Source: Symsagittifera roscoffensis
Taxonomy: Eukaryota
NCBI RefSeq assembly: GCF_963678635.1
Contig: NC_087064.1
Location: forward strand, 45,921,437-45,985,436
Reading direction: 5' to 3'
Length of the DNA stretch: 64,000 nt
The position numbers and the translations under genes were made by a program. The notes under the pieces were generated by a model, which was not told where the DNA came from, searched no databases, and saw nothing but the letters and a program-made list of their open reading frames with translations. Shown here piece by piece: positions 1-44,012 of this stretch. Numbering within the stretch: the stretch's first letter is position 1; every line of letters begins with the position of its first letter.

Positions 1-1600
1 TTTGGGGAAAAATTCGTTAAGAAAGTTGGATGATATTAAATTGCCAATTTTTGACGAAGAATTTCTTTCGTATGTCTCAAAACAATAAGTGACAAAGTTT
101 ACTCAAAACTCAGAACTAACGGAGCTCAGCCTGCTGAGTTATACGGTTTGGGTAGAGTACATAAAAAAGAAATACTACTCCGTCCGGTTCTATCATTTTT
201 TGGCAGTAGTTCTCTAAACTGAAGAGCTTTTTGACCCTCCTTTTTGAAAAATTTTCTGGCGCAAACATCGAAACATCTAAGTTAGACGCTCGAGAAAAAC
301 TCGAAAAATTAATACTCGACGAAAATGAACAAACTGTTTCACTAGACGTTAAGAGTCCCGTATTGGAAGCAATTGAGATTGCCTTACGTAAATTGTATAG
401 AACTGATTACCCACCAGATATTAAAGTGCTGCTTAAGTTAGCCGTGATAAAAGTTTATTTCGAAAGCAACGGAAAAGGGTATTGCCAGAAGGATGGGTTA
501 GCCATGGGTGCATCACTGGTAGTAATTTCGGCTAATTTATGGATGCAATCGTATGAACAAATAATGAACGATAAAAACGAAGGCATAAAGCAAATAACAA
601 AAAATAATCTCAAAAAAGTCCAAGAGGCAGCAAAAGTTTTGGATGAAACAGCAAAGGTGTTGAACAGTGAAAAATGTGAAAAATGGTTTCATGCTAATTG
701 CCAAAACATCAGTAAAGACGAATACCAAAAAATGGGTGATATAATGGTACTGGGAATTCTGTCGTAATTTACCAGACATTTCAACTTGTGTTAAGGAAAG
801 AAAACTGTTCGAAAGATACAAAGACGACAAAGTTTGCGCAGTCAAAGGGGACTCAAACACGTAACTTAATAGGGTGAACTGGTTGCATTAGAACTTACCA
901 TTTACTATAAAAAAGCCAACGAAAAAGAAAAACTTGTTTTTTTGGACATGAATATTGTCCAAAAATCAACTGATACTGAAACTACTTTGAGCTTTCATAG
1001 GTGCGAACCACTCCAGTACAAAAAAAAACCTTACGGAAGGAAAACAACATAGGTTGTTTCGATATACCATTAACTGGAAGAAACTCGACAAAGCGTTAAA
1101 AACCAACGAGGAAATTGAGAAGAAAAATCAGTACCCAGAACCCTGGACATCAAAAAAATAAAAACGACATTGAAAAGAAATCACAAACAAAACATCAAAA
1201 ACTTCACAGAAAGCAAAAACAGAAAGCAGTCGCGAGAAAATTGACAAAATGATATTTTTTCTACAGCATCGAGGAAACTAAAGTTTGAAATCGACAGAAA
1301 AATTTCAAAGATCACAAGCCCGGTATTGATCATTTCACGACGCGCAAAAAAATGCCTGCCGTCGCTTAAGTCAACTTTTGACTGCAACCTGAAGTCTCAT
1401 GTGGTTTATGAAACAAAATGTAAGGAACATAGTGCCACTTATGTTGGGCAAACATGCCGACATCTAACCATACGCATAACAGAGCATCAAAAGAATGATT
1501 CGCCAGAAAGACAGCATGTCGCAGAATGCTGTGGACAATCTAAGGCTTTTGAATGGAGATTAATTGACAAAGGCAATGATTCTGAAAATTACTAACCTTA
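1..1600 (+). mobile_element. Penelope-like element PLE-1, copy a. It is partial at the window edge: RT plus GIY-YIG, with a ~395-bp internal deletion of N-terminal-domain sequence relative to copies c and d.
   Basis: Translation of 130-230 gives LYGLGRVHKKEILLRPVLSFFGSSSLN, the RT motif YGLPKIHK...RPIVS. ORF 231-767 carries SLDVKS (the RT motif A, sfDVksLFTnIP type) and GYCQKDGLAMGASLVVISANLWM (motif B). 1326-1595 encodes VVYETKC...YVGQTCRHLTIRITEH...H, a GIY-YIG endonuclease. Confidence 0.7.
1283..1595 (+). pseudogene. GIY-YIG endonuclease domain of PLE-1 copy a
   Basis: ORF 1326-1595: HVVYETKCKEHSATYVGQTCRHLTIRITEHQKNDSPERQHVAECCGQ. It has the GIY/YIG-type V-Y and Y-V-G motifs, a conserved Arg and the EH. 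The same domain is at 23,760-24,007 and 29,848-30,095. Confidence 0.7.
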
Positions 1601-1974
1601 TAATAAGATATGTAAACGCAAGCCATGTGAACATTAGGCATTTTAGCTTGATTCAAATTTTATTGTTCCAAATTAAAACATACAGATTGACTTAACTAAA
1701 TAATTTAATCCTAGGAATAACTTTAAAAAGGTGATAAAATTGGAAAAAAATTCGTCAATGACAAACTATAACCAAAAACGAATTTCCGAAAAAACGTTTT
1801 AATGATTATGTGATACTCTTAGATACTCATAAGCTTTAATCTCAATCAATTTGATTTAAAAAAGTTTTTTAACTGTAAATACTTTGAATTTCAGTCGTAT
1901 AGACTTGATGATGCTAGTTATTATTAAAACTTTACTGACTTATGAATAAGAAAAACATTAATTTCCAATAAGCT

Positions 1975-2301
1975 TCAGTTGTTTCCGAGATGTTTGTCCA
2001 TAGACTGCCATAGAGAGGTTTTCACTGAAGATTGATAGAAAAAATTCTTTAACTTTAATTTCATAGTCAAATAAGTTAAACTGCTGTTGGTAAGGATTGC
2101 ATTTGTGCTTTCAATTTGATTCCATTCAAAGACTAATATTTTGAAAAAATAGTTTTCGATGAAATGAACGCTGAATTTTTCAAGGAAGAGTAATTTGATA
2201 GCTCTCCTGTTCCCATCACTTGTGAGGTTCTCGTAATTGATTCTCGTATTGCTGGTAGTAGATTGTCTTTCACTTTCTAAAGACGACATACTAATTACCA
2301 A
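1975..2301 (-). other. ORF of unknown function, conserved in all three P-unit copies (also ~24,336-24,704 and the ~30,4xx equivalent)
   Basis: 108-aa ORF with no recognisable motif. Its conservation only reflects the recent duplication. It may be non-coding. Confidence 0.15.
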
Positions 2302-2595
2302 TTACGAAATCTTGAAATTGGTATTACATAGTGTTTAAGACTCAGATCAGCTGATGCATCATTTTATTTCCGAAACACAAGAGGGCTTAATTGTCCAGTT
2401 TAGTTGTTTCTCAAGTGATATTTTCAATTACTTTATTATACCACTTAGAAGTATTGCTGGGTAACACAAATGGCATATGACTAAAGCATTCATAAATAGT
2501 ATTTGTTTCAATTTGTTAGCGGTCATTGGAGGTAATGCTTTGATACCGCTGGCCATTTTTTCTAATATAAATTTAACTTCACCTTGAAATTTGGC

Positions 2596-2790
2596 ATATC
2601 CACAAAGTCATAATAATAATCTTAACAATAATCATAATAATAAAAAAAGATTATATCCACTGGCATATCCACAAAGTCATAATGATAATCATAATAATAA
2701 TAATAATCATAATAATAATCAAAACAATAATCATAATAAAAAAAAATTAATATCGCAAAAATAGTAATAATAATAATCACATTAATCATG
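2596..2790. repeat. AT-rich minisatellite of (ATAATAATC/ATAATAATAATC)-like units. Other copies at 25,163-25,285 and 31,236-31,335.
   Basis: Direct reading: cataataataatcttaacaataatcataataataa... repeated. Confidence 0.8.
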
Positions 2791-3538
2791 ATAAAAATAC
2801 TCGTAGTAACCCTAATATTTACAAAAAAGAGTCATAAATTTTCCATATATTTAGAAAAATTGTTTGATTAATTACAAAAAACGAAAAACATGTTGATTCT
2901 TAGGTCGAGAGTTTGACCGTAAGAAGCATAACAAAACATACTTGAATTCAATTTTTATTTCACTGAGATGCAGAGTAACGAATTTTAAACTAAGAGTGTA
3001 TAATCTGGCAAATTTTTGCTTAACTTTTTCTAAAAAGCGTTAAAATTGTAAAGTCAAGCAAACGCTTTTGCTTATTTTTTTTGCATCTTCAGATTTCAAA
3101 AAACTAAACTACTCTGTACAAAATGATCAAAAATCCTGAAAAGTGTCATTTGAGTCATTTCTTTCAAATTTAAAAAAATTAAGCAATCAAATTTCACAGA
3201 TATAACTAAAATTTTGTTAGAAGCATGATGTAACAATTTCAATAATTTACAATTTCTTTTTGTTGCTAATTTCATGCTAACAAGTAAGTGATTTAAATAC
3301 TTTTGGTTTCAGCCGAATTTTATCAATTCTAGAACAATGGCCTTAGTGTAAACTCCCTACTTCAAACTCATCGAGCGCAACAATTGCCGGTCTCCCATTC
3401 CTATTGTTACAATACTAGTTTGTGCAATCAGAAATGCCAATTTTCGAGATGTGTTTGGTGTCTATATTGTGAACTGTAAAATATGATGTAGTAATTTTGC
3501 TGCCCGCAGCACCTCTTCAGGATCACCCTTTACTGTTT

Positions 3539-4871
3539 TCATAATATCTTTAATGTAACGGAGAAAAAGTTAGCCTGCTGCACTGAATTGTTTTTCTCCC
3601 TTATCGCGGTGCATTTTCTGCAGTACCAGTCGGTTTCACTTATATTTCGATGCTCATCATCTGATATATCACCGCATTTTACGTGATACGAGTTCAAACA
3701 GCATTCGCATCCCACACCTTTTGACACGTACGTGACTTTCTTATTGCACTCGAGACATATTCCATTAGGTTCTTTTTCGGGCATAAACTTTTCACGAATA
3801 TCCCCCCGGAAGTTCAGTTTCGTACTGCTTCAGCCAAAGGTTTGCTATAAAACGACAATAGTTGCCCCTTTTGCCGAACCATTTTTTCTGAACATACTAT
3901 GTTTCACTGCACTTGAAATGGACTTGACTAACTACCATGTTCAACCGTCTCTTCATGGTTTTCCTAGCACCTGACGGCAGTTCATCTTGCTGATACAGCT
4001 TTCTCAGAGCTATGTTTAGTGCTTCTTTGAGTGAATCAATTGTATACAAACTCTTCACATCTAGAGATAGCAAGATTTCCTTTAGCTCAAGACTAATGAT
4101 CTCTCAGATTTTTCTTGCTTCTAGTGAGTTGGTTTTGATGTTTGCGCCCTCAATTTTTTCGGAAATTTTTGCAAGAACCTTGTTCAGGTTAAACTAACAG
4201 CTACCAGGCAATGAGAGGACCGGTCTTAATAGGGTTCTCTGTTTACGCACCTTGGTTTACCCAAAAAGCCTGGCGGGCTGCCTCCGAGTACACCTCATTC
4301 TTGTGTAGAGATTCTCACTTTTTTTCGTCTTTTTGCTCGTAGCCAACAAATCCTTATTGATATGTTTTTCTATCTTCATAATGATCGAATCACATGTTCC
4401 TTTGCTTTCGCTGACCTTGATTTAAATCTAACAAATCCGATAGTTATTTCTCGTAGGTAACCCTCCTCATTACGCAAAAACCAACGCCCATGTCATACGG
4501 TACCCCAACCAATCCATTACTCCTCAGATAATTTCGGGCCTTCCGAACGCCCTTGTCAGCTGGTGTTGGTTTCCCGCTTTTAGAATAGGCTTTTGCCACT
4601 GCTTCGATTTCACAAAGAGCCTTCCCAGGGACTTTTTGATATTTGAGATCCGAAAGAAAGATGTTAACATCGGCGAGAAAGTGTGTCTCACTAAATTTAT
4701 CCCTGACAGGATGTTTCGGCTCTAATTCCAACAGTTGTTGTACCCAATAAGGTAATCCAACATCATCAAGAGCTTTTAATGAACCCTTTTAATGAGGTCG
4801 ATCCTGCCTTTCTGATGGTTTAATTAGTTTTTTTTCATGGTTCTCTGTAACTTCTGCTGTTGTTGTTGTTA

Positions 4872-4927
<56 letters not shown>

Positions 4928-4929
4928 GC

Positions 4930-4966
<37 letters not shown>

Positions 4967-5022
4967 GCTGTTGTTGTTGTTGTTGTTGTTAATGTTGTTG
5001 TTGTTGTTGTTGGTGGTGGTGG

Positions 5023-5077
<55 letters not shown>

Positions 5078-5491
5078 GGTGGTGGTGTTGTTGTTGTTTT
5101 CTGTCCCCTGAGACTTGGGTATTTCATTACCGAAGGCCAAAACTTCTCATCTACACCCCTCTGTACTGCGCCTTTCGCCTTTTCCAGTTTTCTCTTGAAG
5201 TTTTTCTCATCTGTCCTTGCCTTGGTTAATCTCCGTTTCTAAAAGTCTTGTCTGAAAATTATGTACCGCTTGGTCCAAAAACATCCCATTTTCCGGTTCC
5301 CTCAACCTCAAAAAATTATGTATATTGTCGTTTTCAAAACATCCTCTCGGAAATTTACCACGCTGGTGGCAGTTGATAAATATAAAATATATGGATGCAT
5401 AATCACAGACTAATTTCAAAGTGCGTTTCTTTTTAAGGTCCAAATCAAGTTTGGAGGTTCGAGGCCTCGAGGAATAAACCTCATGTGACAC
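3539..5491 (-). mobile_element. Penelope-like element PLE-2, a diverged paralogue of PLE-1, on the minus strand. It has an N-terminal domain, an internal (AAC)n microsatellite, a 5' RT fragment, then a deletion to the C4HC3 zinc-finger linker. No GIY-YIG remains.
   Basis: Minus ORF 5207-5491 reads FPRGCFENDNIHNFLRLREP...FLDQAVHNFQTRLL. This matches the PLE-1 N-terminal CLNNDIIPHFLEFRVP...FSEQAVLNFKKRLL. Minus ORF 4444-4731 (EPKHPVRDKF..THFLADVN...LCEIEAV...PTPADKGVRKAR) aligns to PLE-1 VPKHAIKDML..IHFLADID..LCGIVA..PTDRALLRM. Minus-strand translation of ~4,150-3,960 gives RPVLS...ISLDVKSLYTIDSLKEALNIALRKLY (RT motif A). Minus ORF 3539-3784 has CLECN..x11..CECC..SYHVKC..x17..CRKC. This is homologous to PLE-1 C.KWFHANCQNISKDEYQKMGD.YW..C. 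Confidence 0.6.
4856..5097. repeat. (GTT)n, read as (AAC)n on the PLE-2 sense strand. A ~80-unit microsatellite with a few CTG/ATT/GGT variants.
   Basis: Direct reading. The ORF-track poly-L, poly-N and poly-T proteins across 4789-5140 are its six-frame images. Confidence 0.95.
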
Positions 5492-6419
5492 AATTCAAGA
5501 CAAATAACACAAAATTAACTCACCTGCTCCGTTGAAGTCTCCTCGTCAGTTTGTCCAACTATTTCCTCTCCTCTGTCCACTGTCTTTTTTCTCCACCCTC
5601 CTTCTCGTTTGCTAGTTCTTTTTCTTGTTTGAACGAAGCTTTGACAAATCAGCTGGTAGGTTGTCTTGGTGTTCGATCACAATCCGCAAAGATTTTTTTT
5701 AGCTCCAGCTGGATGTCCTGGTGTAGTCCCTGATATTCGTTCACCAGCTCCGTTCTTCTCATCCCCTTTGAAATCAGACACCCTGTAATGGAAATGACAA
5801 GAATACCCGAGCTGATGCGCTGGTTCCTGATATCTGGTGTACCGTTTCTCTGACAGTATACATTTGCGCTGATATTTGTCATTGTCTTCAAGATTTATGT
5901 CAATTCCTCTGGAGTGCAAGCTCTGTAAGTGTTTGTGCGATGGATGTTGATAGAATTACTAATAATGTCGTGCCACACCACCTTTTGACGTTTTTCCACT
6001 CCTGCAGAGTATGTTTGAGAGGTTTTTCTGCGAGTTCGTGGTATTCGAGTTTAAGGAAAGTCCCGGATTAGCCAATTTTTTGGGAAAAAAGTGTTCGTTT
6101 TTTGGGTTGCTAAGTTGTTCCAGGCGCTACAATGTACACCATTTCAATTCTAACAGGCTATTCTAACAAATCATAATTCTAACCAGGGCTCCATACAAGA
6201 ATAGAGAGATCAAAAAATCTTACAGTTCACACAGACTTTTTTGAAACGTGGACAACAACGCGGCAACAACGTGGACGGCTTTATCCTAGCTCAACATTCA
6301 AGAAAAAATAGAAAACGAAGTACGGTCTCTGATTGACCAGGGACACATGACTCGCTGAAAAAATGAAGTGACCAGCAGTTTTTTAGTCACATTGTAATAA
6401 CTGTAAAAAACTATCCAAC

Positions 6420-8700
6420 ATTGAAATTGGCAATGAATTCAAAACAAGTAAGCAAATCGTTCTATGAAAACAAGCATCGAATGCCTAACATTGACGTTTT
6501 GCTTGACAAAATTGAACACTTGCCCATGAAGTTTGAAACAAACCAAATACAACATACTTTTTCAACAATAGACGTATGCTACGAACACAGACAACTGACA
6601 ATAGACAATGACAGCCGGCTGCCATCAGACACAAAAACACATACGCATTGTAATTTTAGTTTTATCAGTGGTAGAGCTACAAAAAACTTTCAGTTCCAAA
6701 CGGGACCCTACGGGCTTACAGATATGTGCGCATAATTGTAAAAAACGAATACAGCACAATCCCTATGCAAAAGATAACATAGGAAAATTACAAAACCCTA
6801 CAGCCTTCAAATGGCTCAAAAGCTTCATTGGCTCCATTCATCATTTAAATAATTCCTACCAAACTTAGCCCAATAGTGTAGGGCCATTTTTACCTACAAC
6901 AAATTAATTCCACTGTGGATGAAACGCTGATCGCAAAAAAGCATTTAAAAAAACATTACATGCAGTACAAAACATCACCGAAAGCAGAATTTTTGTAAAT
7001 GATAGGGAGACGCGTATTGTATGCAACGCAAGTCGAGAAGGAAGAGAGGCGACTCTCGAACAAATTACACTGCACGGCTGGGCAACAATTGCATATGCGT
7101 CGCGCTTCCTAATCTCTTATGAACACAAACATTCAATCAACGAAGTGGAACTCTTGGCAGCAGTCTGACAGATTTTTCACACTAAATACAGACCACTAAG
7201 CAATAGTAAATGCTTTAGAAAGTAACAGGGGAAACAAAACCTATCAAAACCGTTGAATCAGGTGGATCGACAGACGTTTTTTGTTCAATTTTGATATAAA
7301 AACAGCTAGGAGGCAGTAAAAAGGGTATCTTTTACGACTACGAGAGGAAAACTTCTCCCCAGCAAACTGGGAAGAACATTTTGTCATTACATTAATCCCC
7401 GACTTCGTCAATTGTTTAGAATTTGAAAATAGCAGTGCTGCAAATATTTTATTGAACAATTCTCTAACCGGATATTTCGGCACGAAGAAGTCAACCTGAA
7501 CGAAATATTTAAACCTTCACATTCGATTCAAATGCAAACAGCATTCACCGTTAAAATTCAATCTTTACACACTAGACGCTCAATAGCCTTGCAACATTCC
7601 GTTCCAAGTTCTTTTGAAATTCTAAAAAAGCGATAAAATGCACAGACCTTTTATACAATGATTGCCATTAACACCGTTCAAAAGAGTCACATAAAAATGC
7701 CACAAAGGCAGTCAAGCACAATTATCAATCGCACAAACCAATTACGCCTCTTTATTGAGTCTCTTGCCAAATAACCTCCGCCCAAACTAACAATCAGCGA
7801 AGTCAAACACCAAGCGATCCCTGCGGTCGGAACCTTCACCTTCTGAAGAGTCCAGAATGAGAAAGCGGACGCGACTTGCCAAAGATTAGAGGAGGGGAGC
7901 GCTGTAGGAAGAAGACATTCCACTCTTCTGGAAAACTTGTGAAGAGTAATAGACATAGACTTCATTACAGCGGCCACAAAAAAGCTGGAGTTTTGTCTCC
8001 AATCGTCAACATGGTCAAGCAGCAGAAATGGGACAACCAAGGATTGTTATAGAACCTACTTTTACAACGTGCGGCACCGCCTGTCGTTTAGGGACAACAT
8101 CTTACTTAACGACTATAGGGTCGTGATACCGAGGGCTATACTAGTGGATGCAATGCATTCAACCCACCTGGGAAAAAATTGATGGCAGCCAAACACGTGT
8201 GGTAGCCATTCTTACACCGCGACGTAGTCTCCACCACTTAAAACTGTAAAAACTATCGAGACAAGGGTAAGGACTTTGAAGTGATATCAGACAAGCAACA
8301 CTATACCACGCTTGGCATGTTGGTAGAACCTAACAAAGAATACCAATTGGATTTCGCGGGAACTATCCGAAACAAGGAAAAGGATTTATAGTGGTTGTAG
8401 AATAATTCTCCTGTTTCCATTCGGTCAAGGTGCTTACAAATAATAATGCGGATACAATCATCTGATTTGTGCAAAATCACCTTATCAATCATCGTGTGAA
8501 CAGGCACAAAACATACGGTGCGACCAGGCACAAAACTATAGGGCCAAAAAATGTGTTTTTCACTGTAAAATTAACAAGAACAAAACTAATATATATACCA
8601 TTAGATGACCATAAGTCAATGGGTTTGTTGGAAAGGCTTATTAGAACTGTGAAACCAAGATTATAGGTAATAAGAATCGACAAAACAAACAGGTCGTATA
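6420..8700 (+). pseudogene. Ty3/gypsy-like LTR-retrotransposon pol remnant (RT, RNase H, integrase) with frameshifts and stops. Identical copy at 14,431-16,711. A ~95%-identical copy sits at 34,049-36,330.
   Basis: ORF 6421-6735: PNIDVLLDKI..FSTIDVCYEHRQLTIDNDSRLPSDTKTHTHCNFSFISGRATKNFQFQTGPYGLTDMCA (the RT P.IDDLLD..FSKLDL..GYHQI and Y.F..MPFGLTNAP block). 6608-6868 gives LKSFIGSIHHLNNSY (the FLGL.GYYRRFI block). The 35,305-35,700 copy gives VQNEKADAICQRLEE (the RNase H-end ..ADALSR motif). 8,090-8,270 gives the integrase HH..C..C region. 8,330-8,400 gives IGFRGNYPKQGKGFIVVVE.FSCF (the IDFIGPLP.S.G..YILVVVD.FSK block). 8469-8666 gives DHKSMGLLERLIRTVK (the HPQTDGQTERLNRTL block). Confidence 0.7.
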
Positions 8701-9934
8701 AACTTGCGTCGGAAGTGGCAGAGCTGATTTAAACACTTCAAATTACGCGACCACTAAGATTACGCCATTTGAAGCCCAAAATGTCAGAAAACACACCACT
8801 GAGTAACATCAGCGCCTCACCAAAACTTTCAAACCTTTAATGCTAAAACAAGAAACTTTCATATTTACATTCAAAAATAACTAATAAAGCCGGCATTACC
8901 AGCGGAGGCCAGGCGGGACCGAGAGAAAAACAGCGAGGACGTTCTAGTCCTGATGTACAGAGATACATATGCGCCAGAACCCAGAGAGCATACATACCTA
9001 CCAGAGCCAACATATAACCCACCCAATGAGAAGACTGCCACAACGACTATGGAGGACACAGTTGAAAACAGTCACAAAATAAATGCGACAACGAAACCTG
9101 GGAAAAAAGAATTCAAAGGACCAATCAAAACGTGGATGCGCACCTTAAAAAATTTCCGGTGGGTGCGTAGCTTTCATTTTCTAACCAGCCTTATGACCTG
9201 AAAAATTTTAAGCACGCCTTCTCAAGTGAAAATATATTAAACGACAAAGGACCTAGAAAAGCCAAAAGGGCGCAAACCAATAAAACACTCACAGAACAAG
9301 AAAAGCAAAACCTCGAAATAGCACCACTAGTTTTCCTACAGGATCGCTTCAAAGGTCCAGCGCACACGATTGACCCAAAAACGGGACATTGAATAGCCAG
9401 GAAAACGAGACCAGTTCCACGAAAAACGAAAAATCAAGGCACATTTGAAACTCAAATTAAAATATCCAAACGGGTCAAAATTAACTACTCAACACACCGC
9501 GTGGATCAGGGCAGACGGCAAACAACCGCGAGTAATTAGACACGATGGTCTTGCATTCATACGAGACGCAAGCGTCTACGGAAAATGAAGACCTGTGACG
9601 CTGATGGATTTTGTAGTTTATAAACATCAACCAAGAGCCAAATCTCATGTCTTAGGAGAGCGCAAACTTGCTGACAGGTGACCCTCCAAACAGACCGCCA
9701 CAACCACCAGTCCTGTGCGACCACCCCCAAAATCTATCTGAGAAGTCATTCAGCAATCGATTAACCGCAGGGCATTGGATCCACAAAAGTTGTTCGAATC
9801 TTTTGTATCGAAGACAAAACGGCCCCAAAAAAACCCAAGGACGACGAATCACAAATAAAACAACAACAAACCATACTACGAGGAAAAATGAGCCCCAAGA
9901 AGCAATCCAGAGTACTCATCAGTCAAATTGAGTT

Positions 9935-25285: not shown

Positions 25286-25369
25286 TACTCATAGTAACCC
25301 TAATATTTACAAAAAGGAGTCAAAAAGTTTCCGTATATTTAGAAAATTTGTTTGATTAACTGTGGCTTA

Positions 25370-27554: not shown

Positions 27555-27599
<45 letters not shown>

Positions 27600-31235: not shown

Positions 31236-31335
31236 AAAGTCATAATAATAATCATAATAATAATAATCATAATAATAATCAAAACAATAATCATAATAAT
31301 AAAAAAATAAATATCACAAAAATAGTAATATTAAA
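31236..31335. repeat. AT-rich minisatellite, same family
   Basis: Direct reading. Confidence 0.8.
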
Positions 31336-32058: not shown

Positions 32059-32517
32059 TCATAATATCTTTAATGTAACGGAGAAAAAGTTAGCCTGCTG
32101 CACTGATTTATTTTTCTCCCTTATCGCGGTGCATTTTCTGCAGTACCAGTCGGTTTCACTTATATTTCGATGCTCATCAAATGATATATCACCGCATTTT
32201 ACGTAATACGAGTTCAAAAAGCATGGGCATCCCACACCTTTTGACTTGTACGTGACCTTCTTATTGCACTCGAGACATATTCCATTAAGTTCTTTTTCGG
32301 GCAAAAACCTTTCACGAACATCCCCCCGAAAGTTCAGTTTCGTACTGCTTCAGCCAAAGGTTTGCTATAAAACGACAATAGTTGCCCTTTTTGCCGAACC
32401 ATTTTTTCTGAACATACTATGTTTCACTGCACTTGAAATGGACTTGACTAACTACCATATTAGTTTTTTTTTCATGGTTCTCTGTAACTGCTGTTGTTGT
32501 TGTTATTGTTGTTGACG

Positions 32518-32603
<86 letters not shown>

Positions 32604-32614
32604 ATTGTTGTTGC

Positions 32615-32657
<43 letters not shown>

Positions 32658-32659
32658 GC

Positions 32660-32705
<46 letters not shown>

Positions 32706-33131
32706 GCTTTTGTTGTTGTTGTTGGTGTTGTTGTTGTTTTCTGTCCCCTGAGACTTGGGTATTTTATTGCCGAAGGCCAAAACTTCTCATCTACACCCCT
32801 CTGTACTGCGCCTTTCGCCTTTTCCAGTTTTCCCTTGAAGTTTTTCTCATCTGTCCTTGCCTTGGTTAATCTCCGTTCCTAAAATTCTTGTCTGAAAATT
32901 ATGTACCGCTTGGTCCGAAAACATCCCATTTTGCGGTACCCTCAACCTCAAAAAATTATGTATATTGTCGTTTTCGAGACATCCTCTTGGAAATTTACCA
33001 CGCTGGTGGCAGTTGATAAATATAAAATATATGGATGCATAATCACAGACTAATTTCCAAGTGCGTGTCTTTTTAAGGTCCAAATCAAGTTTGGAGGTTC
33101 GAGGCCTCGAGGAATAAACCTCATGTGACAC
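32059..33131 (-). mobile_element. PLE-2 copy in P-unit B. It has the N-terminal domain, the (AAC)n tract and the C4HC3 finger. It lacks the 860-bp 5'-RT segment that is present at 3,940-4,800.
   Basis: Minus ORFs 32,847-33,131 and 32,059-32,304 are paralogues of 5,207-5,491 and 3,539-3,784. The sequence at 32,440-32,490 joins directly to the microsatellite. Confidence 0.6.
32491..32737. repeat. (GTT)n microsatellite, the paralogue of 4,856-5,097 with different length and variants
   Basis: Direct reading. Confidence 0.95.
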
Positions 33132-33554
33132 AATTCAACCCAAATAACACAAGTTTAACTCACCTGCTCCGTTGAAGTCTCCTCGTCAGTTCGTCCAACA
33201 ATTTCACCTCCTCTGTCCACTGTCTTTTTTTCTCCACCCTCCTTCTCGTTTGCTAGTTCTTTTTCTTGTATGAACGAAGCTTCGACGAATCAGCTGGTAG
33301 GTTGTCTCTGTGTTCGATCACAATCCGCAAAGATTTTTTTAGCTCCAGCTGGATGTCCTGGTGTAGTCCCTGATATTCGTTCACCAGCTCCGTTCTTCTC
33401 ATCCCTTTGAAATCAGACACCTCGTAATAGAAATGACAAGAATACCCGAGCTGATGAGCTGGTTCCTGATATCTGGTGTACCGTTTCTCTGACAGTATAC
33501 ATTTGCGCTGATATTTGTCATTGTCTTCAAGATTTATGTCAATTCCTCTGGAGT

Positions 33555-36500
33555 GCAAGCTCTGTAAGTGTTTGTGCGATGGCTGTTGATAGAATTACTA
33601 ATAATGTCGTGTGACACCACCTTTTGACGTTTTTCTACTATAGATGCCCTGCAGAGTAGGTTTGAGAGGTTTTCTGCGAGTTCGTGGTATTCGAGTTTAA
33701 GGAAAGTCCCGGATTAGCCAATTTTTTGGGAAGAAATTGTTCGTTTTTAGGGTTGCTAAGTTGCTCCAGGCGCTACAATGTACACCATTTCAATTCTAAC
33801 AGGCTATTCTAACAAATCACAATTCTAACCAGGGCTCCAAACAAGAATAGAGGGATCAAAAAATCTTACAGTTCACACAGAATTTTTTGAAACGTGGACA
33901 ACAGCGCGGCAACAACGTGGACGGCTTTATCCTAGCTCCACATTCAAGAAAAAATAGAAAACGAAGTACGGTCTCTGATTGACCAGGGACACATGATTCG
34001 CTGAAAAAATGAAGTGACCAGCAGTTTCTTAGTCTCATTGTAATAACTGTGAAAAAAGATCAAACCTTGAAATTGGCAATGAATTCAAAACAAGTAAGCA
34101 AATCGTTCTATGAAAACAAGCATCGAATGCCTAACATTGACGTTTTGCTTGATAAAATTGAACACTTGCCCAAGAAGTTTGAAACAAACCAAATACAACA
34201 TACTTTTTCAACAGTAGACGTATGCTACGAATATAGACAACCGACAATAGACAATGACAGCCGGCTGCCATCAGACAAAAAAACACATACACATTGTAAT
34301 TTTAGTTTTATCAGTGGTAGAGCTACAAAAAACTCTCAGTTCCAAACGGGACCCTGCGGGCTTACAGATATGTGCGCATAATTGTGAAAAACGAATACGA
34401 CACAATCCCTATGCAAAAGAAAACATATTAAAATTACAAAACCCTACAACCTTCAAATGGCCCAAAAGCTTCATTGGCTCCATTCATCGTTTAAATAATT
34501 CCTACCAAACTTAGCCCAATAGTGTAGGGCCATTTTTACCTACAACAAATTAATTCCACTGTGCATGAAACGCTGATCGCACAAAAGCATTTAAAAAAAC
34601 ATTACCTACAGTACAAAATATCACCGAAAACAGAATTTTCGTAAGCGATAGGGAAACGCGTATTGTATGCGACGCAAGTCGAGAAGAAAGAGAGGCGGCT
34701 CTCGAACAAATTACACCGCACGGCTGGGCAACAATTGCATATGCGTCGCGTTTACTAAACTCTTATGAACACAAACATTCAATCAATGAAGTGGAACTCT
34801 TGGCAGCAGTCTGGCAGATGTTTCACACTAAATACAGACCACTAAGCAATAGTAAATGCTTTACAAAGTAACGGGGGAAATAAAACCTATCAAAACCGTT
34901 GAATCAGGTTGACCGACAGACGTTTTTTGTTCAACTTTGATATAAAAACAGCTAGGAGGCAGTAAAATGGGTAGCTTTCACGACACACGTGAGGAAAACT
35001 TCTCCCCAGCATACTGGGAAGAACATTTTGTCATTACATTAATCGACGACTTTGTCAATTGCATAAAGTTTGAAAATAGCAGTGCTGCAAATATATTATT
35101 GAACAATTCTCCAACCGGATATTTTGGCACGAAGAACTCAACCCGAACGAAATATTTAAATCTTCACATTCGATTTAAATGCAAACAGCATTCACCGTTA
35201 AAATTCAATCTTTACACACTAGACGTTCAATAGACTTGCAACATTCCGTTCCAAGTTCAATTGAAATTCTAAAAAAGCGATAAAATGGACAGACCTTTTA
35301 TACAATGATTGCCATTAACACCGTTCAAAAGAGTCACATTAAAATGCCACAAAGGCAGTCAAGCACAATTATCCTTCGCACAAACCAATTACGCCTCTTT
35401 ATTGAGTCTCTTGTCAAATCACCTCCCCCCGAAATAACAATCAGCGAGGTCAAACACCAAGCGATCACATCGGTCGGAACCTTCACCTTCCGAAGAGTCC
35501 AGAATGAGAAAGCGGACGCGATTTGCCAAAGATTAGAGGAGGGGAGCGCTTTAAGGAAGAAGGCATTCCACTCTTCCGGAAAACATGTGAAGAGTAATAG
35601 ACATAGACTTAATTACAGCGGCCACAAAAAAGCTCGAGTTTTTTCTCCAATCGTCAACATGGTCAAGCAGCAGAAATGGGACAACCAAAGCTTGTTATAG
35701 AACCTACTTTTACAACGTGCGGCACCGCCTGTCGTTTAGGGACAACATCTTACTTAACGACTATAGGGTCGTGATACCGAGGGCTACACTAGTGGATGCA
35801 ATGCATTCAACCCACCTGGGAAAAAATTGCATGTTAGAGGCAGCCAAACACGTGTGGTAGCCATTCTTACACCGCGACCTAGTCTCCACCGCACAAAACT
35901 GTAAAAAATATCGAGACAAGGGTAAGGACTTTGAAGTGATATCAGACAAGCAACACTATACCACGCTTGATATGTTGGTAGAACCTAACAAAGAATACCA
36001 ATTGGATTTCGCGGGACCACTATCCGAAACAAGGAAAAGGATTTATAGTGGTTGTAGAATAATTCTCCTGTTTCCATTCGGTCAAGGTGCTTAAAAATAA
36101 TAAAGCGGATACAAGCATCTGATTTATGCAAAATCACCTTATCAATCATCGTGTGAACAGGCACAAAACGTACGGTGCGACCAAGCACAAAACTATAGGG
36201 CCAACAAATGTGTATTTCGCTGTAAAATTAACAATAACAAAACTAATATATATACCAGTAGATAACCACAAGTCCATGGGTTTGGTGGAAGGGCTTATTA
36301 GAACTCTGAAACCAAGATTATAGGTAATAAGAATCGACAAAACAAACAGGTCGTATAAACTTGCGTCGGAAGTGGCCGAGCGGATTTAAACACTTCAAAT
36401 TACGCGACCACTAAGATTACGCCATTTGAAGCCCAAAATGTCATAAAACACACCACTGAGTAACATCAGCGCATCACCAAAACTTTCAAACATTTCATGC

Positions 36501-37594
36501 GAAAACAAGAAACTTTCATAATTACATTCAAAAATAACTAATAAAGCCGGCATTACCAGCGGAGGGCAGGCGGGACCGAGAGAAAAACAGCGAGGACGAG
36601 CTAAACTTGATGTACAGAGATACATACGCGCCAGAACCCAGAGAGCGTACATACCTACCAGAGCCAACATATAACCCACCCAATGACAAAACTGCCACAA
36701 CTACTATGGAGGACACAGTTGAAAACAGTCACAAAACAAATGCGACAACGAAACCTGGGAAAAAAGAAGGCAAAGGACCTATCAAAACGTGAATGCGCAC
36801 CTCAAAAAATTTCCGGTGGGTGCGCAGCTTCCATTTTCTAACCAGCCCTAAGACCTGAAAAATTTTAAGCACGCCTTCTCAAGTGAAAATATAATACACG
36901 ACAAATGACCTAGAAAAGCCAAAAGGGCGCAAACCAATAAAACACTCACAGAACAAGAAAAGCAAAACCTCGAAAGAGCACCACTAGTTTTCCTACAGGA
37001 CCGCTTCAAAGGTCCAGCACACACTATTGACCCAAAAACGGGACATTGAATAGCCCGGAAAACGAGACCAGTTCCACGAAAAACGAAAAATCAAGGCAAA
37101 TTTGGGGCTCAAATTAAAATTATCCAAACGGGTCAAAATTAACTACTCAACACACCGCGTGGATCAGGGCAGACGGCAACCAACCGCGAGTAATTAGACA
37201 CGATGGTCTTGCATTCATACGAGACCCAAGCGTCTACGGAAAGTGAAGACCTGCGACGCTGAAGGATTTTGTAGTTTATAAACATCAACCAAGAGCCAAA
37301 CCTCATGTCTTAGGAGAGCGCAAACTTGCTGACAGGTGACCCTCCAAACAGACCGCCACAACCACCAGTCCTGTGCGACCACCCCCAAAATCTATCTGAG
37401 AAGTCATTCAGCAATCGATTAACCGCAGGGCATTGGATCCACAAAAGTTGTTCGAATCTTTTGTATCGAAGACAAAACGGGCCCAAAAAAACCCAAGAAC
37501 AACGAGTGACAAAGAAAACACCAACAAACCATACTACCAGGAAAAATGAGCCCCAAGAAGTAATCCAGAGTACTCTTCAGTCAAATTGAGTTCC
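33555..37594 (+). repeat. X' segment. It is a ~95% copy of 5,908-9,935 and includes the gypsy-like pol remnant at 34,049-36,330.
   Basis: ORFs 34,049, 34,254, 35,305 and 36,126 are paralogous to 6,421, 6,608, ~7,660 and 8,469. Confidence 0.8.
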
Positions 37595-40500
37595 TTATCT
37601 TCAGATTCTGAAAAGAACAGAAAAACGCCATCTCCACAGAAACCGGCCGCAAAGCGATTAGACATAAAACACCCCAGAACAAAACTCACCAGAATCTAGA
37701 CGTTCTCCTAGGTCTAGAAAAAGCGCACTCACCATAAAACTAGAAAATCTCATTCCGATTAGCCAAATGTCGGAATTGAAAATGTCCGCAATAGTTGTAT
37801 GCAGCATCGAGGAAACCGACAAGCACAACAACATGCCCAACAAGACCAGCAAAAACCAAGACACCCAAACAACTGATACGAAGAAGAACACAAAGCGACA
37901 AATTCTTTCGGATGGAATCACGTGTACGAAAATACAAGTGGATACTTCCAAGTCAGAAAATACAAGATCCAAAGAACCAAATACGCAGCAAACCATACAC
38001 ACTCTCTCACCATAAAGACCAACAAATTCTTTTTACATTCTCGACAGACCGAAAACGACAGAAAATCCAATTAGCAAAAATTTCGAAACAACAATGAATA
38101 TTCTGCAATCTATCTCCCCGGTCCGGGGTAACTCGATGACGTTCCAGAGAGAACGTGAAACTCATGCAGGGCAACAACGTATTCAGAAAGAGAACCACAT
38201 CAAACAAAAAACATCAATAGAGCCCCAGTTAACGAGGACAAAAAGTCAGACGCTAAAACATATAACGACACGACGAAGAAAAGAGAGCAAAATTGATAGA
38301 CTCAATTGTTCAAAAAGAGGGAAATCTTGTTCATCCCGATTTTACAGAAATACAACTAATGATTATGAACCATACTAAAACAACCAATTGGCAACTCATA
38401 CTTTATTTATAGGTTTTTGTGATTAGCGTATAGAAGTATGATGATTAAATAAGTATAGACAAATGTACTAGTTCTTGTAAGAGACTGTCTCTCAAATGAG
38501 TCGATGTCAGTGTCACCCAGACTTAAGCAGAGAAGTGAGTTTAAATTGCTATTTAACCTGTTTCATTCAATCAACGTTAGATGTTGCCAACGTAACTGTG
38601 GCTTACCCTCACCTAACTGATGAGAGTATAACATGGCGCAGCCAGCAGTTTCGAAAAACACTCTCGAAATTACTCCATTGCGGCAAAAAGCCTCGGTAGA
38701 ACCATTAACCGTGGGGGATATTTGCAATCAGCTGTTATTTCTGGTAATCATAGCCAAAGATGGTAGTAATCCGCAGAACTTTCTTGGACCAGCAATACCA
38801 ACACAAAAACCTCAGCAACCAGGTAACAAACTACCAGTCAACGGAGAACCAAAACCCAAGTTAGAGATTGAGACCTGAGAAATTAGGAAAAAAGAATACA
38901 AGGGGAGAATCAATGTCAACTTCTGGACAATCTAGCACCAACTGTAGACAATTTACCGGGGGAACAAGCGGACATGAAAAATCGCAGCTATTTTTATTTG
39001 TGTCTAGGGACAGATGCCAAAGGCGGCTAAGCAAACCTGACTCGAACCTGAAGATACAAAACCTAACAACTAGATATCTATGAACAGACTAGAAACAATG
39101 TCTTTAAAAAACCAAGAAATGTATAATTTGACAGGTATGAAGCGTTCACGCGCAAGCAGGGAAAAACGGAAACATTGGAGCAGATCCCCAGTGGCTTAAC
39201 AGAACTCGTAGTAATAGGAAACTTCAAATGCACAACTTGTAGCAACGGAGAACGTGAGGCAGAAATTGACAGAGACTTTATCTTCAGATTCTGAAAAGAA
39301 CAGAAAAACGCAATCTCCACAGAAACCGGCCGCAAAGAGATTAGGCATAAAGCACCCCAGAACAAAAGTCATCAGAATCTAGACGTTCTCCTAGGACTAG
39401 AAAAAGCGCACTCACCATAAAACTAGAAAATCTCCTTCCGATTAGCCAAATGTCGGAATCGAAAATGTCCGCAATAATTGTATGCAGCATCGAGGAAACC
39501 GACACGCATAACAACATGCCCAACGAGACCAACAAAAACCAAGACACCCAAACAACTGATACGAAGAAGAACACAAAGCGACAAATCCTTTCGGATGGAA
39601 CCACGTGTACGAAAATACAAGTGGATACTTCCAAGTCAGAAAAAACAAGATCCAAAGAACCAAATACGCAGCAAACCATAGTCACTCTCTCACCACAAAG
39701 ACCAACAAATTCTTTTTACATTCTCGACAGACCGAAAGCGACAGAAAATCCAATTAGCAAAAATTTCGAAACAGCAATGAATATTCTGCAATTTATCTCC
39801 CCGGTCCGGGGTAACTCGATGACGTTCCAAAGAGAACGTGAAACTCATGCAGGACAACAATGTATCCAGAAAGAGAACAACATCGAACAAAAAACATCAA
39901 TAGAGCCCCAATTAACGAGGCAAAAAAGTCAGACGCTAAAACATATAACGACACAACGAAGAAAAGAGAGCAAAATTGATAGACTCAATTGTTCAAAAAG
40001 AGGGAAATCTTGTTCATCCCGATTTTACAGAAATACAACTAATGATTATTAACCATACTAAAACAACCAATTGGTAACCCATACTTTATTTATAGGTTTT
40101 ATTGATTAGCGTATAGAAGTATGATGAATAAAGAAGTATAGACAAATGTACTAGTTCTTGTAAGAGACTGTCTCTCAAATGAGTCGAGGTCAGTGTCACC
40201 CAGACTTAAGCAGAGAAGTGAGTTTAAATTGCTATTTAACCTGTTTCATTCAATCAACGTTAGATGTTGCCAACGTAACTGTGGCTTACCCTCACCTAAC
40301 TGATGAGAGTATAACATGGCGCAGCCAGCAGTTTCGAAAAACACTCTCGAAATTACTCCATTTCGGCAAAAAGCCTCGGTAGAACCATTAACCGTGGGGG
40401 ATATTTGCAATCAGCTGTTATCTCTGGTAATCATAGCCAAAGATGGTAGTAATCTGCAGAACCTTCTTGGACCAGCAACACCAACACAAAAACCTCAGCA

Positions 40501-41340
40501 ACCAGGTAACAAACTACCAGTCAAAGGAGAACCAAAACACAAGTTAGAGATTGAGACCTGAGAAATTAGGAAAAAAGAATACAAGGGGAGAATCAATGTC
40601 AACTTCTGGACAATCTAGGACCAACTGTAGACGATTTACCGTGGGAACGAGCGGACATGAAAAATCGCAGCTATTTTTATTTGTGTCTAGGGACAGAGGC
40701 CAAAGGCGGCTAAACAAACCTGACTCGAACCTGAACATACAAAACCTAACAACTAGATATCTATGGACAGACGAGAAACAGTGTCTTTAAAAAACCGAGA
40801 AATGTATCATTTGACAGGTATGAAGCGTTCACGCGCAAGCAGGGAAAAACGGAAACATTGGAGCAGATCCCCTGCGGCTTAACAGAACTCGTAGTAATAG
40901 GAAACTTCAAATGCACAACTTGTAGCAACGGAGAACGTGAGGCAGAAATTGACAGAGACTTTATCTTCAGATTCTGAAAAGAACAGAAAAACGCAATCTC
41001 CACAGAAACCGGCCGCAAAGAGATTAGGCATAAAGCACCCCAGAACAAAAGTCATCAGAATCTAGACGTTCTCCTAGGACTAGAAAAAGCGCACTCACCA
41101 TAAAACTAGAAAATCTCCTTCCGATTAGCCAAATGTCGGAATCGAAAATGTCCGCAATAATTGTATGCAGCATCGAGGAAACCGACACGCATAACAACAT
41201 GCCCAACGAGACCAACAAAAACCAAGACACCCAAACAACTGATACGAAGAAGAACACAAAGCGACAAATCCTTTCGGATGGAATCACGTGTACGAAAATA
41301 CAAGTGGATACTTCCAAGTCAGAAAAACGGAGAACGTGAG
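37595..41340 (+). repeat. Tandem array of the 1.68-kb sub-repeat. It has two full 1,683-bp units (37,595-39,276 and 39,277-40,959). The third unit (40,960-41,340) carries an internal ~1.3-kb deletion.
   Basis: ORF-track entries recur at +1,683 (37,767 to 39,450 to 41,133; 38,633 to 40,316; 38,868 to 40,551). At 41,326 the sequence jumps from the equivalent of ~10,300 to ~11,590. Confidence 0.85.
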
Positions 41341-43180
41341 GCAGAAATTGACAGAGACCTATTCACAGGCAATGTGTTCAACGATGAAGTGCAAAAAGAT
41401 CTGCTAGCGGAAAAGAATCTCCGGAACAAGCGTTATTTGTCAGTGTCTTCAGGATTTCTGTCAATTCCTCTGGAGTGCAAGCTCTGTAAATGTTTGTGCG
41501 ATGGTTGTTGATAGAATTACTGATAATATCGTGCCACAACACCACTTGACGTTTTTCTGCTAGAGATGCCCTGCATAGTGGGTTTGAGAGGTTTTTCTGC
41601 GAGTTCGTGGTGTTCGAGTTAAAGGAAAGTCACGGAATAGCCGATATTTTGGGCAGAAATTGTTCCTTCTCCGGGTTGCTAAGATATTCCAGGCTGTGGT
41701 AGAAGGAATTAGCCGCTACAATGTAGACCATTTCAATTCTAACATTTTTTTAAAAAACCAAAAATCCAAAGGAAAAATTAAATTTACAATTCTTTGTAGG
41801 AGAGACTGTAATTGAGACTTGGCTCAACGCCGTAGAGTTTTAGAATTTTACAACTAAATAAGTTGAGACCTACATCTAAATAAATTGTCTGACAGAGTTT
41901 TTGAAAAAATATAAATTGACTCAGACTACTCTAAATTTGCAATTTCTTCGTGGTCTTGCAAAAAAAAACGTTTAGCATTATAATCATGTTAACTATCTTT
42001 TGCTTAAAATTTAGACGATGCTTTGTGGTAAATTCGTAAGTTTTAAAAGCAGAACAAACAACTACAAAAAACAATTTGGTAAGCCTTAAATTGAAAAAAA
42101 TTGAAAAATGAAAAATATCTTTTACAATACCGCATGAGTTTATTTCAGTTCAATTGAAAAACTCCCAGCCGATTGCAACTAAAACTCCTAATCTTTCTTA
42201 TTTTCAATGTTTCCCATCAAAAAGAATAAAAAATAATTACATTACTCTGAAATTTTTGCTGCAAAGCCGCGTGAATTTAACTCAATTCGATTGAAAAACT
42301 CCCAGCCAGTAGCTTTTGAAACTATTTCAGATTAACTACAAAAAACAATTTGGTAAGCATTAAATTGAAAAAAATTGAAAAATGAAAAATATCTTTTACA
42401 ATACCGCATGAGTTTATTTCAGTTCAATTGAAAAACTCCCAGCCGATTGCAACTAAAACTCCTAATCTTTCTTATTTTCAATGTTTCCCATCAAAAAGAA
42501 TAAAAAATAATTACATTACTCTGAATTTTTGCTGCAAAGCCGCGTGAATTTAACTCAATTCGATTGAAAAACTCCCAGCCAGTAGCTACTAAAACTATTT
42601 CGGATTAACTGCAAATTAATCCAGATAAAACACCAAACTGCTGTATTGTTTTTTATGGCTCTCATTATATTTTTCCATGATGTATTATGTTTCAGCGCAA
42701 TTGTTGTTGTTTTTTTTTGAAATTTGGTAATGAAATTTTGAATTTAGTTTTATAATGAAATAAATTAACGTGACTCTTTAGCACTTTTCTCTTATTTTCT
42801 TAATTTTTTTATAAAAGTGTGCTTTCTTTGAAAAACTATATATACTTCGAAATAATTAACTTCAGTAAATAGCAAGGCTAGCCGGTAGTTATGCAAGTAA
42901 ACTAAGCAATTCCGCAGAAAATTTGCGTCTACAAAAAAACTTGAAAACAGTTGTTTCTGTTAGGTTATGAGCGGATCTAAACAAAAACCTATAAAATAAG
43001 CATATTTTGTAGTAAATGTAGAATATGCGTTTCTGATAAAGTTTTTTTCGAAATTTTTATCAAAAAAAAAAAATTCCATTTTTTGGCAGTTTTTTTAAAA
43101 GTTTTAAAAATGAGTTCAAAAAACTTCAATAACTCATACTATTGGAGAAAAATTCAGTTTTTACATTTTTTTTGCGTATT
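41341..43180 (+). repeat. Copy of the Y-end and Z segment (equivalent to ~11,590-13,150). It contains an internal ~190-bp direct duplication at 42,020-42,590.
   Basis: 41,161-41,511 and 41,520-43,150 match 11,512-11,766 and 11,770-13,150. The block ttggtaagc(a/c)ttaaattgaaaaaaattgaaaaatgaaaaatatc... occurs twice. Confidence 0.75.
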
Positions 43181-43993: not shown

Positions 43994-44012
43994 CCCCCCC
44001 CCCCCCCCCCCC
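43994..44012. repeat. Poly-C tract (C19). It reads as a G19 run on the minus strand.
   Basis: Direct reading. Confidence 0.95.

Follow-up and report, generated by a model that had tools for sequence, protein, structure and literature searches.

Tandem duplication of a 14-kb block of decayed retrotransposon fragments in an animal genome

The question raised by the first 43,181 bases of the stretch of DNA analysed here (64 kb in all, referred to as the window) is what kind of repeat structure they form and how it arose. A preliminary description had read them as a higher-order mosaic of the blocks listed in Table 1. Self-BLASTN of bases 1–43,181 placed 42,011 of 43,181 bases (97%) in paralogous alignments that are ≥300 bp long and ≥90% identical; the longest self-match in a shuffled window, which served as a chance control, was 33 bp. 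The repeat map built from self-BLASTN and a four-way MAFFT alignment reproduces the earlier block map almost block for block, so the blocks are real. They do not, however, form a nest of different rearranged pieces. All repeats are direct and collinear, as in tandem duplication, no inverted repeats appeared in the self-BLASTN of the array, and the blocks resolve into a simple series of head-to-tail copies of one ∼14-kb unit, modified by copy-specific deletions and duplications. About four units are visible in the window, and the array continues past its left edge. Head-to-tail copying, at least three times over, of a ∼14-kb block of decayed retrotransposon fragments was thus followed by further duplications and deletions that reshaped the result, an ordinary pattern for repeat-rich animal DNA. 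That the whole of bases 1–43,181 is an array of this unit, itself a graveyard of mobile elements, and that tandem duplication and unequal exchange produced it, is very likely.

Table 1. Positions of the blocks, unit copies and elements in the window
Feature	Position	Strand	Evidence or remark
P block	1–5917		
XYZ block, first	5918–13930		
XYZ block, second	13929–21943		
Truncated P block	21944–25356		
Y′Z′ block	25357–28035		
Third P block	28036–33557		
X′ block	from 33558 onward		
1.68-kb repeats block	37595–39276, 39278–40959, 40961–41326		All in copy C, the last partial
Z block, terminal	41327–43181		
Unit copy A	1–13146	+	Collinear with 28069–43181 (∼95%) and 21976–27199 (∼95%); cut by the left window edge inside PLE-1
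Unit copy B	21160–27199	+	MAFFT four-way alignment
Unit copy C, last unit	27200–43181	+	BLASTN and MAFFT; stops at the array boundary
8,012-bp duplication, copy 1 (XYZ)	5918–13929	+	Compared base by base with copy 2
8,012-bp duplication, copy 2	13930–21942	+	BLASTN, MAFFT, junction reading
SINE-like short dispersed repeat with (ACT)n end	13187–13469; also 21200–21482, 27250–27597	+	90–93% identity to L003 5611–5895
PLE-1, decayed Penelope-like element	21483–24100; second full copy about 27598–30190; in copy A, 3′ part 1 to ∼1700 and 5′ part 13470–13930	+	N-terminal domain, RT, PHD finger, GIY-YIG; 3′ end approximate
PLE-2, decayed, other PLE family	3009–6182; copy in unit C 31575–33828	-	ORF1 and N-terminal domain, RT, PHD
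(TGT)∼80 microsatellite in PLE-2 coding region	4858–5098; copy in unit C 32492–32738	.	TRF
Decayed pol remnant, LTR retrotransposon	6367–8663; also 14378–16674, 34013–36320	+	Pfam RT_RNaseH_2
1.68-kb segment (R1.68)	9937–11613 in A (single copy); partial in B, 25357–26040	+	BLASTN
PLE-2-like 5′ fragment (5′ end and ORF1 start)	11689–12123; also 19700–20134, 26116–26549, 41434–41868	-	Nucleotide comparison
274-bp tandem duplication	42060–42615	+	TRF: period 274, 2.0 copies, 97% matches; unit C only; also in MAFFT alignment
Host gene, WD40-repeat protein, multi-exon	47587–59211	-	Outside the array (context)

The unit comprises, in order, 40 bp of unassigned DNA, the SINE-like repeat, PLE-1, PLE-2 in reverse orientation, the pol remnant, ∼3 kb of unannotated A-rich DNA, the PLE ORF1 fragment and ∼1 kb of AT-rich DNA. 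All copies share the element junctions and the (TGT)n expansion, which shows directly that tandem duplication of the block as a whole acted on elements that had by then decayed or, at the least, become nested; the (TGT)n tract, found in A as well as in C, is older than the unit duplication. The flanks of the SINE-like repeat and of its match at L003 are unrelated on both sides. In the pol remnant, Pfam RT_RNaseH_2 was detected at 6923–7165 (E = 2 × 10−8, 34.4 bits, above the cut-off); RT-like and integrase-like motifs are discernible by eye only and neither is confirmed by Pfam. No gag or protease region precedes it, and on the 5′ side it adjoins PLE-2 at about 6182. Pfam searches gave no match for R1.68 on either strand, nor for stop-free stretches (≥55 aa) of Y on both strands and of Z on the plus strand. 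ARAGORN found no tRNA, and Rfam found no RNA at gathering scores over the whole window or at E ≤ 5 over 20–34 kb, with two chance-level miRNA matches only.

A stitched PLE-1 pseudo-protein matched PLE proteins with RVT_1, PHD and GIY-YIG domains (E = 9 × 10−153, 45% identity, 98% coverage). The element contains many stops and frameshifts, and Pfam returned GIY-YIG with an E-value of 0.003 (below its cut-off) and PHD with an E-value of 0.0045. The combination of RT and C-terminal GIY-YIG that marks a PLE is present in PLE-1; PLE-2 has lost its GIY-YIG part, and ∼0.7 kb is missing between its RT and 3′ end. The label PLE-2, already used in the preliminary description, is correct as judged by PLE protein matches and by nucleotide matches to the reference PLE copies at L002 and L003, which are independent copies from other assemblies (82–84% identity to L002 and L003 10038–12560; 77–78% to their 3′ ends). 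Its protein is collinear with P0003 and homologues of its ORF1 lie directly upstream of RT ORFs; the AlphaFold2 model of the PLE ORF1 (mean pLDDT 43) was too poor for a fold search. The PLE-2-like 5′ fragment (11689–12123) is 82–88% identical to L002 and L003 9831–10298 and 78% identical to 5873–6182. The reference copies show the classic arrangement, in which the 3′-end segment is repeated upstream of the element. Organism-named PLE matches came solely from the acoel Symsagittifera roscoffensis (42–44%), and the PLE and LTR families of the array fragments still have many ORF-bearing copies in related assemblies. This PLE family, in which ORF1 is separate and the reverse transcriptase contains a PHD finger, is a by-product that may be of more interest than the array.

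The unit boundaries are defined by a recurrent end-to-start junction, GCGTATTA/CATTTTCGG. The sequence ...GCGTATTA is followed by (C/G)ATTTTC(G/A)G at 13146/13147, 21159/21160 and 27199/27200, and the last unit ends at the same point, 43181, where it is followed by TAAGCCC and unique DNA (TAAGCCCACTCG...) that matches no unit. Such a recurrent junction with a terminal stop at a unique flank is the arrangement of a tandem duplication, as are breakpoints unrelated to mobile-element ends: 40 bp separate the unit boundary from the SINE-like repeat downstream of it, position 5918 is in PLE-2 ORF1 and position 13930 is in the PLE-1 coding region. The breakpoints inside elements and the junction microhomology of only 1–2 nt point to ordinary duplication and unequal exchange rather than transposition.

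The units also carry private changes. In copy A a deletion at position 83 has removed 398 bp (previously put at ∼395 bp). Copy B has lost ∼8.06 kb internally (A-coordinates ∼2869–10929; junction 25356/25357, GTTTGAT/TAACTG, with the 2-nt microhomology 'TA'), ∼0.4 kb at a second site (A 12212–12620) and about 20 bp near 27876, the last described earlier as a 21-bp deletion at ∼27,870. Copy C has gained the extra 1.68-kb repeat copies and the 274-bp tandem duplication and lacks 883 bp of A (3941–4823). The preliminary description had recorded this as an 860-bp PLE-2 segment (3,940–4,800) absent from P-unit B; the segment is real but represents a deletion in copy C, and in A it forms an uninterrupted stretch of the PLE-2 coding region. 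The reported expansion of (TAC)5 to (TAC)14 at 27,556 corresponds to (ACT)5 at 13455–13469 and (ACT)14 at 27557–27598. All four copy-specific lesions of the earlier account are therefore real in the MAFFT alignment and copy comparison.

The two XYZ blocks, once estimated to share 99.9%, are 99.96% identical by BLAST. Over 8,012 bp they differ by one substitution (9344 T/C) and a 2-nt difference in the length of an A-run at 13044. The junction ...ACAAACAAAA/AGCTCTG has 1 nt of microhomology, with the left breakpoint inside PLE-2 ORF1 and the right inside the PLE-1 N-terminal coding region. Coincidence of the left breakpoint (5918) with the start of similarity between the two ORF1 fragments was rejected, the similarity being present already from 5873. 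A pair this similar could also arise if part of the structure, above all 5918–21942, were a false duplication by the assembler, e.g. through end-to-end placement of two haplotypes or of reads with errors. Long-read assembly error would give the same pattern, long reads typically err in the length of homopolymers and the lone base difference could be a heterozygous site. The 8-kb junction is, however, a clean single breakpoint with its 1 nt of microhomology, and the older units, which are 2–5% different and have private indels, cannot be assembly duplicates. An assembly artefact is thus considered unlikely, and the near-identical pair could be used as a checkpoint of assembly quality.

Counting substitutions only, the P units are 94.7% (A–B), 94.8% (A–C) and 98.0% (B–C) identical, with local 500-column windows of up to 100%, in keeping with the 93–99% given earlier. 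The other paralogues share 93–97% by substitutions and 90.5–96.9% by BLAST with gaps, where 90–95% had been given for X′, Y′Z′ and Z″, and the R1.68 copies share 96.3% (C1–C2), 99.7% (C2–C3) and about 94.7% (A–C). These graded identities support the proposal of at least three rounds of segmental duplication at one locus; about six events were counted. Ordered by divergence, the series would begin with a unit duplication that set A apart from the common precursor of B and C (∼5% divergence; ∼95% identity), followed by duplication of the internal 1.68-kb segment (3.7%; 96.3%), the split between B and C (∼2%; ∼98%), the 274-bp duplication in C (2.5%; 97.5%), a further copying of the 1.68-kb segment (0.3%; 99.7%) and finally the 8,012-bp tandem duplication (∼0.01% divergence). 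Deletions of 8, 0.9 and 0.4 kb would have been interspersed among these events. The order of the middle events is uncertain because the divergences fit no single clean tree: the 1.68-kb C1 and C2 copies are more diverged than B and C elsewhere.

Site patterns conflict between regions. Copy A is the odd one out in P (124 versus 26 and 24 sites) and at the end of Z (32 versus 2 and 2), whereas at A-coordinates 11581–12211 it is copy B (19 versus 5 and 6). These regional conflicts suggest gene conversion or unequal exchange between units, in support of the recombination invoked in the preliminary description. Since the junctions share only 1–2 nt, the first duplication and the deletions are probably the outcome of joining, whether non-homologous or microhomology-mediated, or else of template switching during replication. 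With a second unit in place, gene conversion and unequal crossing-over between the units would have altered the copy number and made the regionally conflicting relationships. Transitions and transversions between copies are about equal (32:33, 21:20 and 98:83), so the substitutions look neutral; a RIP- or methylation-type mutation bias was rejected, no class of change being dominant. With neutral-looking substitutions and stop-rich coding regions, the array gives no sign of a function at the sequence level.

The array lies next to a gene: the WD40-repeat gene, with its long open exons, lies only 4.4 kb beyond its end. Against Pfam WD40 (cut-off 27) the stitched exons reach 58.6 bits (E = 6 × 10−16), and the stitched protein has no close homologue (best match 28% identity over 14% of the query). 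An exact-match protein search with a 200-aa ORF from the window returned no record. The right-flank ORFs gave no match in a Pfam search of that flank. The preliminary description had called the architecture typical of pericentromeric or heterochromatic repeat nests, a setting that draws no support from this single 64-kb window: a gene is close by, a scan found no telomeric repeats and TRF found no satellite repeats. It is distinctly unlikely that the 14-kb composite is the repeat unit of a macrosatellite that is young and still expanding, is a mobile composite present at other loci or is a small-RNA source locus kept beside the WD40 gene; if it were, the near error-free 8-kb duplication would mark ongoing, population-polymorphic structural instability.

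The last of these possibilities, taken by itself as a functional piRNA-type source locus whose fragments would be kept or amplified since their transcripts silence active PLE and LTR elements, appears quite improbable. Nested transposon clusters in heterochromatin or piRNA clusters, e.g. Drosophila flamenco-type loci, contain dense decayed retroelement fragments with local duplications, and piRNA clusters of other animals are also prone to local duplication. The array resembles such loci as a dense nest of decayed fragments with local duplications, its source families keep ORF-bearing copies and it adjoins a gene. It differs from flamenco-type loci in the proximity of the WD40 gene with its long open exons; its fragments lie on both strands and no sequence feature sets a piRNA cluster apart from any transposon graveyard.

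PLEs typically occur as partial tandems forming pseudo-LTRs and prefer microsatellite targets (Craig et al., 2021; PMC8557442). The array contains PLEs, and PLE-1 starts right after the (ACT)n tract, with the unit boundary just ∼320 bp away, so that the unit might be regarded as a single giant composite retroelement carried by PLE-1 and the array as the partial-tandem arrangement of a PLE insertion. In such an arrangement the unit is one PLE and the junctions run from 3′ end to 5′ end. Here the period is 14 kb, full-length PLEs of this kind at L003 being ∼3.85 kb, and the boundary lies off the PLE-1 end, upstream of the separate SINE-like repeat. The unit contains unrelated elements on both strands, including the reverse-oriented second PLE family and the LTR-type pol remnant, and the units are 2–5% diverged with different indels. 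No hammerhead ribozyme was detected by Rfam at gathering scores in the whole window or at E ≤ 5 over 20000–34000, a result of little weight in copies so decayed. A PLE-1 composite is accordingly very improbable. An LTR-retrotransposon tandem (LTR–internal–LTR–internal–LTR) formed by unequal LTR recombination and later invaded by other elements is scarcely credible: such arrays have a period of one LTR plus the internal region and a plus-strand pol remnant is present in every long unit, but the only long direct repeats within the unit are the two 78%-identical PLE ORF1 fragments, the array ends in ...TTA and not in the ...CA of a canonical TG...CA terminus, and in place of gag–pol only the RNase H domain is detectable.

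The favoured reading, tandem duplication of a composite block, has its closest parallels in tandem segmental duplications and in transposon-derived tandem arrays that can seed satellite DNA (McGurk & Barbash, 2018; PMC5932611; reviewed in PMC12628747). Alike are the head-to-tail, transposon-made copies, the graded divergence of the units and the unequal exchange that alters copy number and homogenizes. Those transposon-derived arrays start from a dimer of a single element made by double insertion (PMC5932611), whereas here several unrelated dead elements make up a 14-kb repeat unit, of which just about four copies are visible. The array is a textbook case of a block of dead transposons becoming a local tandem repeat that is then altered by unequal exchange, gene conversion and microhomology-mediated deletion. 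For an animal genome that is apparently poorly sampled, it can be used as an internal clock of neutral decay, and it illustrates step by step how a transposon graveyard begins to turn into tandem repeat DNA.

With a minimum length of 300 bp, self-BLASTN of the window returned 30 alignments, every one of them direct and none inverted; the longest self-match in a shuffled window used as a control was 33 bp. Paralogous alignment (at least 300 bp, 90% identity) covers 42,011 of the 43,181 bases in 1-43,181, and a four-way MAFFT alignment of the segments 1-13930, 13931-21943, 21944-28035 and 28036-43400 is collinear along its entire length. These alignments reproduce the block map of the preliminary description and confirm the mosaic that it had noted, and all four of the copy-specific lesions that it had listed were recovered; the feature is real and was accurately described. 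The notation P / XYZ / XYZ / P-trunc+Y'Z' / P / X'(R)nZ reduces to one unit of ~14 kb repeated head-to-tail. At 43181 the final unit closes with ...GCGTATTA and gives way to unique sequence (TAAGCCC...); this ...GCGTATTA recurs at 13146, 21159 and 27199, each time directly before the start of the next unit. Phasing on this junction gives four units in the window (see table).

Features of the window (PLE, Penelope-like element)
Feature	Positions	Strand	Remarks
Unit A	1-13146		truncated by the window edge
Short unit	13147-21159		product of an 8,012-bp tandem duplication of 5918-13929
Unit B	21160-27199		deletions of ~8.06 kb (unit A coordinates ~2869-10929) and 0.4 kb
Unit C	27200-43181		lacks 883 bp of PLE-2; 1.68-kb segment x2.2; 274-bp tandem duplication
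PLE-2	6182 down to 3009	-	second PLE; translation collinear with PLE protein P0003
PHD finger sites	3542-3829 (-), 633-730 (+), 23050-23150 (+)		also in PLE proteins P0001 and P0003
Second fragment of PLE-2-family ORF1 and 5' end	11689-12123	-
SINE-like short dispersed repeat	13187-13469, 21200-21482, 27250-27597		~285 bp; (ACT)n terminus
Multi-exon WD40-repeat gene	59,211 to 47,587	-	long open exons; Pfam WD40 58.6 bits (cut-off 27)

The duplication that produced the short unit is of very recent origin, its two copies differing by one substitution (9344) and by 2 nt in the length of an A run. It is possible that this near-perfect pair is an artefact of assembly, as its sole indel is a homopolymer length difference; however, the older units are 2-5% divergent and carry private indels, which an artefact cannot produce. 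Ordered by the divergence between copies, the events involve A versus B/C (~95% identity), the 1.68-kb copies C1 and C2 of unit C (96.3%), the 274-bp duplication (97.5%), B versus C (~98%), the 1.68-kb copies C2 and C3 (99.7%) and the 8-kb pair (~99.99% for substitutions), with the middle of this order being uncertain because of mosaicism. Substitutions between copies show no directional bias, the element coding regions are interrupted by stops and frameshifts, and the decay of the array looks neutral. That the array might be a functional locus of the piRNA type is unlikely.

The unit contains two decayed PLEs. A PLE-1 protein stitched together from stop-free stretches of the + strand, running from ~13,500 over the Z-to-P boundary to ~1,600, matches PLE proteins with RVT_1, PHD and GIY-YIG domains over 98% of its length (E-value 9e-153, 45% identity); its direct Pfam matches to GIY-YIG (E-value 0.003) and PHD (E-value 0.0045) both lie under the cut-off. 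Of the protein matches to the PLE query, those that carry an organism name all come from the acoel Symsagittifera roscoffensis (42-44%). At the nucleotide level PLE-2 shows 82-84% identity to PLE copies from two ENA assemblies (contigs L002 and L003 10038-12560) and 77-78% to the 3' ends of these copies, and the window element lacks ~0.7 kb between the two matching parts. Relatives of the window PLE families are numerous in the ENA assemblies ERZ25071366 and ERZ25878734, and since nucleotide identity reaches 93% these assemblies represent related species or the same genus. The reference PLE copies of the ENA contigs are arranged in the classic PLE ways: L001 7747-12580 has inverted head-to-head ORFs, and L002 7447-13701 has partial tandems in which the 3'-end segment is repeated upstream as a pseudo-LTR. 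In both window families RT motifs B and C have a PHD finger between them (...GLAMGASL...C-x2-C...W(F/Y)H..C...RYVDD); the PHD insertions reported for the algal Chlamys PLEs are at other positions (PMC8557442). The PLE-2 coding region also harbours an expanded (TGT)~80 microsatellite (4858-5098 and 32492-32738), which in one frame of the - strand reads as a long poly-Thr or poly-Asn tract; its homologue P0003 lacks a repeat at the equivalent site.

For a separate - strand ORF (5518-6125), 31 homologues were found in ENA assemblies (130-222 aa, 59-81% identity). In both of the loci examined (L002 10001-10666 and L003 10001-10654) the homologue lies directly upstream of a PLE RT ORF, which identifies this frame as ORF1 of the PLE-2 family. 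The ORF1 product is ~220 aa long with a conserved 'VVVWHDIINNSINSH...CQRNGTPDIRNQ' signature; it has no match in Pfam, and AlphaFold2 gave no usable model (pLDDT 43). To our knowledge, no ORF1 of this kind has been described for PLEs.

Elsewhere in the unit, 6923-7165 (+) matches Pfam RT_RNaseH_2 over the cut-off (34.4 bits) and marks a decayed LTR-retrotransposon pol; RT-like and integrase-like motifs flanking this RNase H region are sightings by eye only. The SINE-like repeat is 90-93% identical to L003 5611-5895 with both flanks unrelated, and in copy B its (ACT)n tract has grown from 5 to 14 units. PLE-1 starts directly after this (ACT)n, consistent with the preference for microsatellite targets that has been reported for PLEs (PMC8557442). 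Neither the A-rich region at 8.7-11.7 kb, including the 1.68-kb segment, nor the terminal ~1 kb of the unit has a Pfam match.

The junctions between elements are identical in every unit, and the (TGT)~80 tract is common to A and C, which alone keep that region of PLE-2; these shared features indicate that copying of the block came after the nesting of the elements. Breakpoints and element ends fall at different positions: the SINE-like repeat starts 40 bp downstream of the unit boundary, in the 8-kb duplication the PLE-1 N-terminal coding region (13929) is joined to mid-ORF1 of PLE-2 (5918), and at the deletion junctions of A, B and C no more than 1-2 nt of sequence are shared. This pattern does not fit transposition, and the founding duplication and the deletions could instead have arisen by non-homologous or microhomology-mediated joining or by replication template switching. 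After tandem copies have arisen, unequal crossing-over and gene conversion are expected to drive further change (cf. PMC5932611), and the units, once present in tandem, would then have been altered by both. Counts of odd-one-out sites for A, B and C, respectively, are 124, 26 and 24 in P (1-5917) and 32, 2 and 2 in the last part of Z; in unit A coordinates, B is the odd one out at 11581-12211 (5, 19 and 6 sites) and the pattern at 10721-11580 is star-like. Such regionally conflicting site patterns are evidence for exchange between units and, with the graded identities, bear out the earlier proposal that the architecture is recombination-driven and records several rounds of segmental duplication. 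A tandem generated by PLEs was rejected, as the unit is not a PLE and its boundary is not at a PLE end, as was an LTR-internal-LTR array, given the ...TTA terminus, the lack of an LTR-like repeat inside the unit and the missing gag and protease region.

The window has a G+C content of 36% and only four ORFs longer than 150 aa, and no tRNA and no Rfam family at the gathering score were found across it; the DNA looks eukaryotic and repeat-rich in character. Shortly past the array end is a C19 homopolymer (43994-44012). The spacer between array and gene contains a repeat (46085-46843) that matches L001 19153-21363 at 81-85% in both orientations and includes an open frame, rich in proline and glycine, for which Pfam gave no match. 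The nearest exon of the WD40 gene is 4.4 kb from the array end. A search of 5.8 billion proteins gave no close homologue of its product (best match 28% identity over 14% of the query), and the gene is either fast-evolving or of a poorly sampled lineage. A 1.25-kb direct repeat (98.9% identity; 55859-57102 and 62755-64000, 6.9 kb apart) may be a young dispersed element present twice or an LTR pair; the first copy is intronic, since it lies between WD40 exons, and the second continues past the right window edge. Neither telomeric repeats nor satellite-like arrays were found in the window, and the pericentromeric or heterochromatic setting proposed earlier sits a little awkwardly with the gene-bearing flank. 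Biologically the array is nothing out of the ordinary: a transposon graveyard amplified locally in tandem, an instance of a well-known kind.
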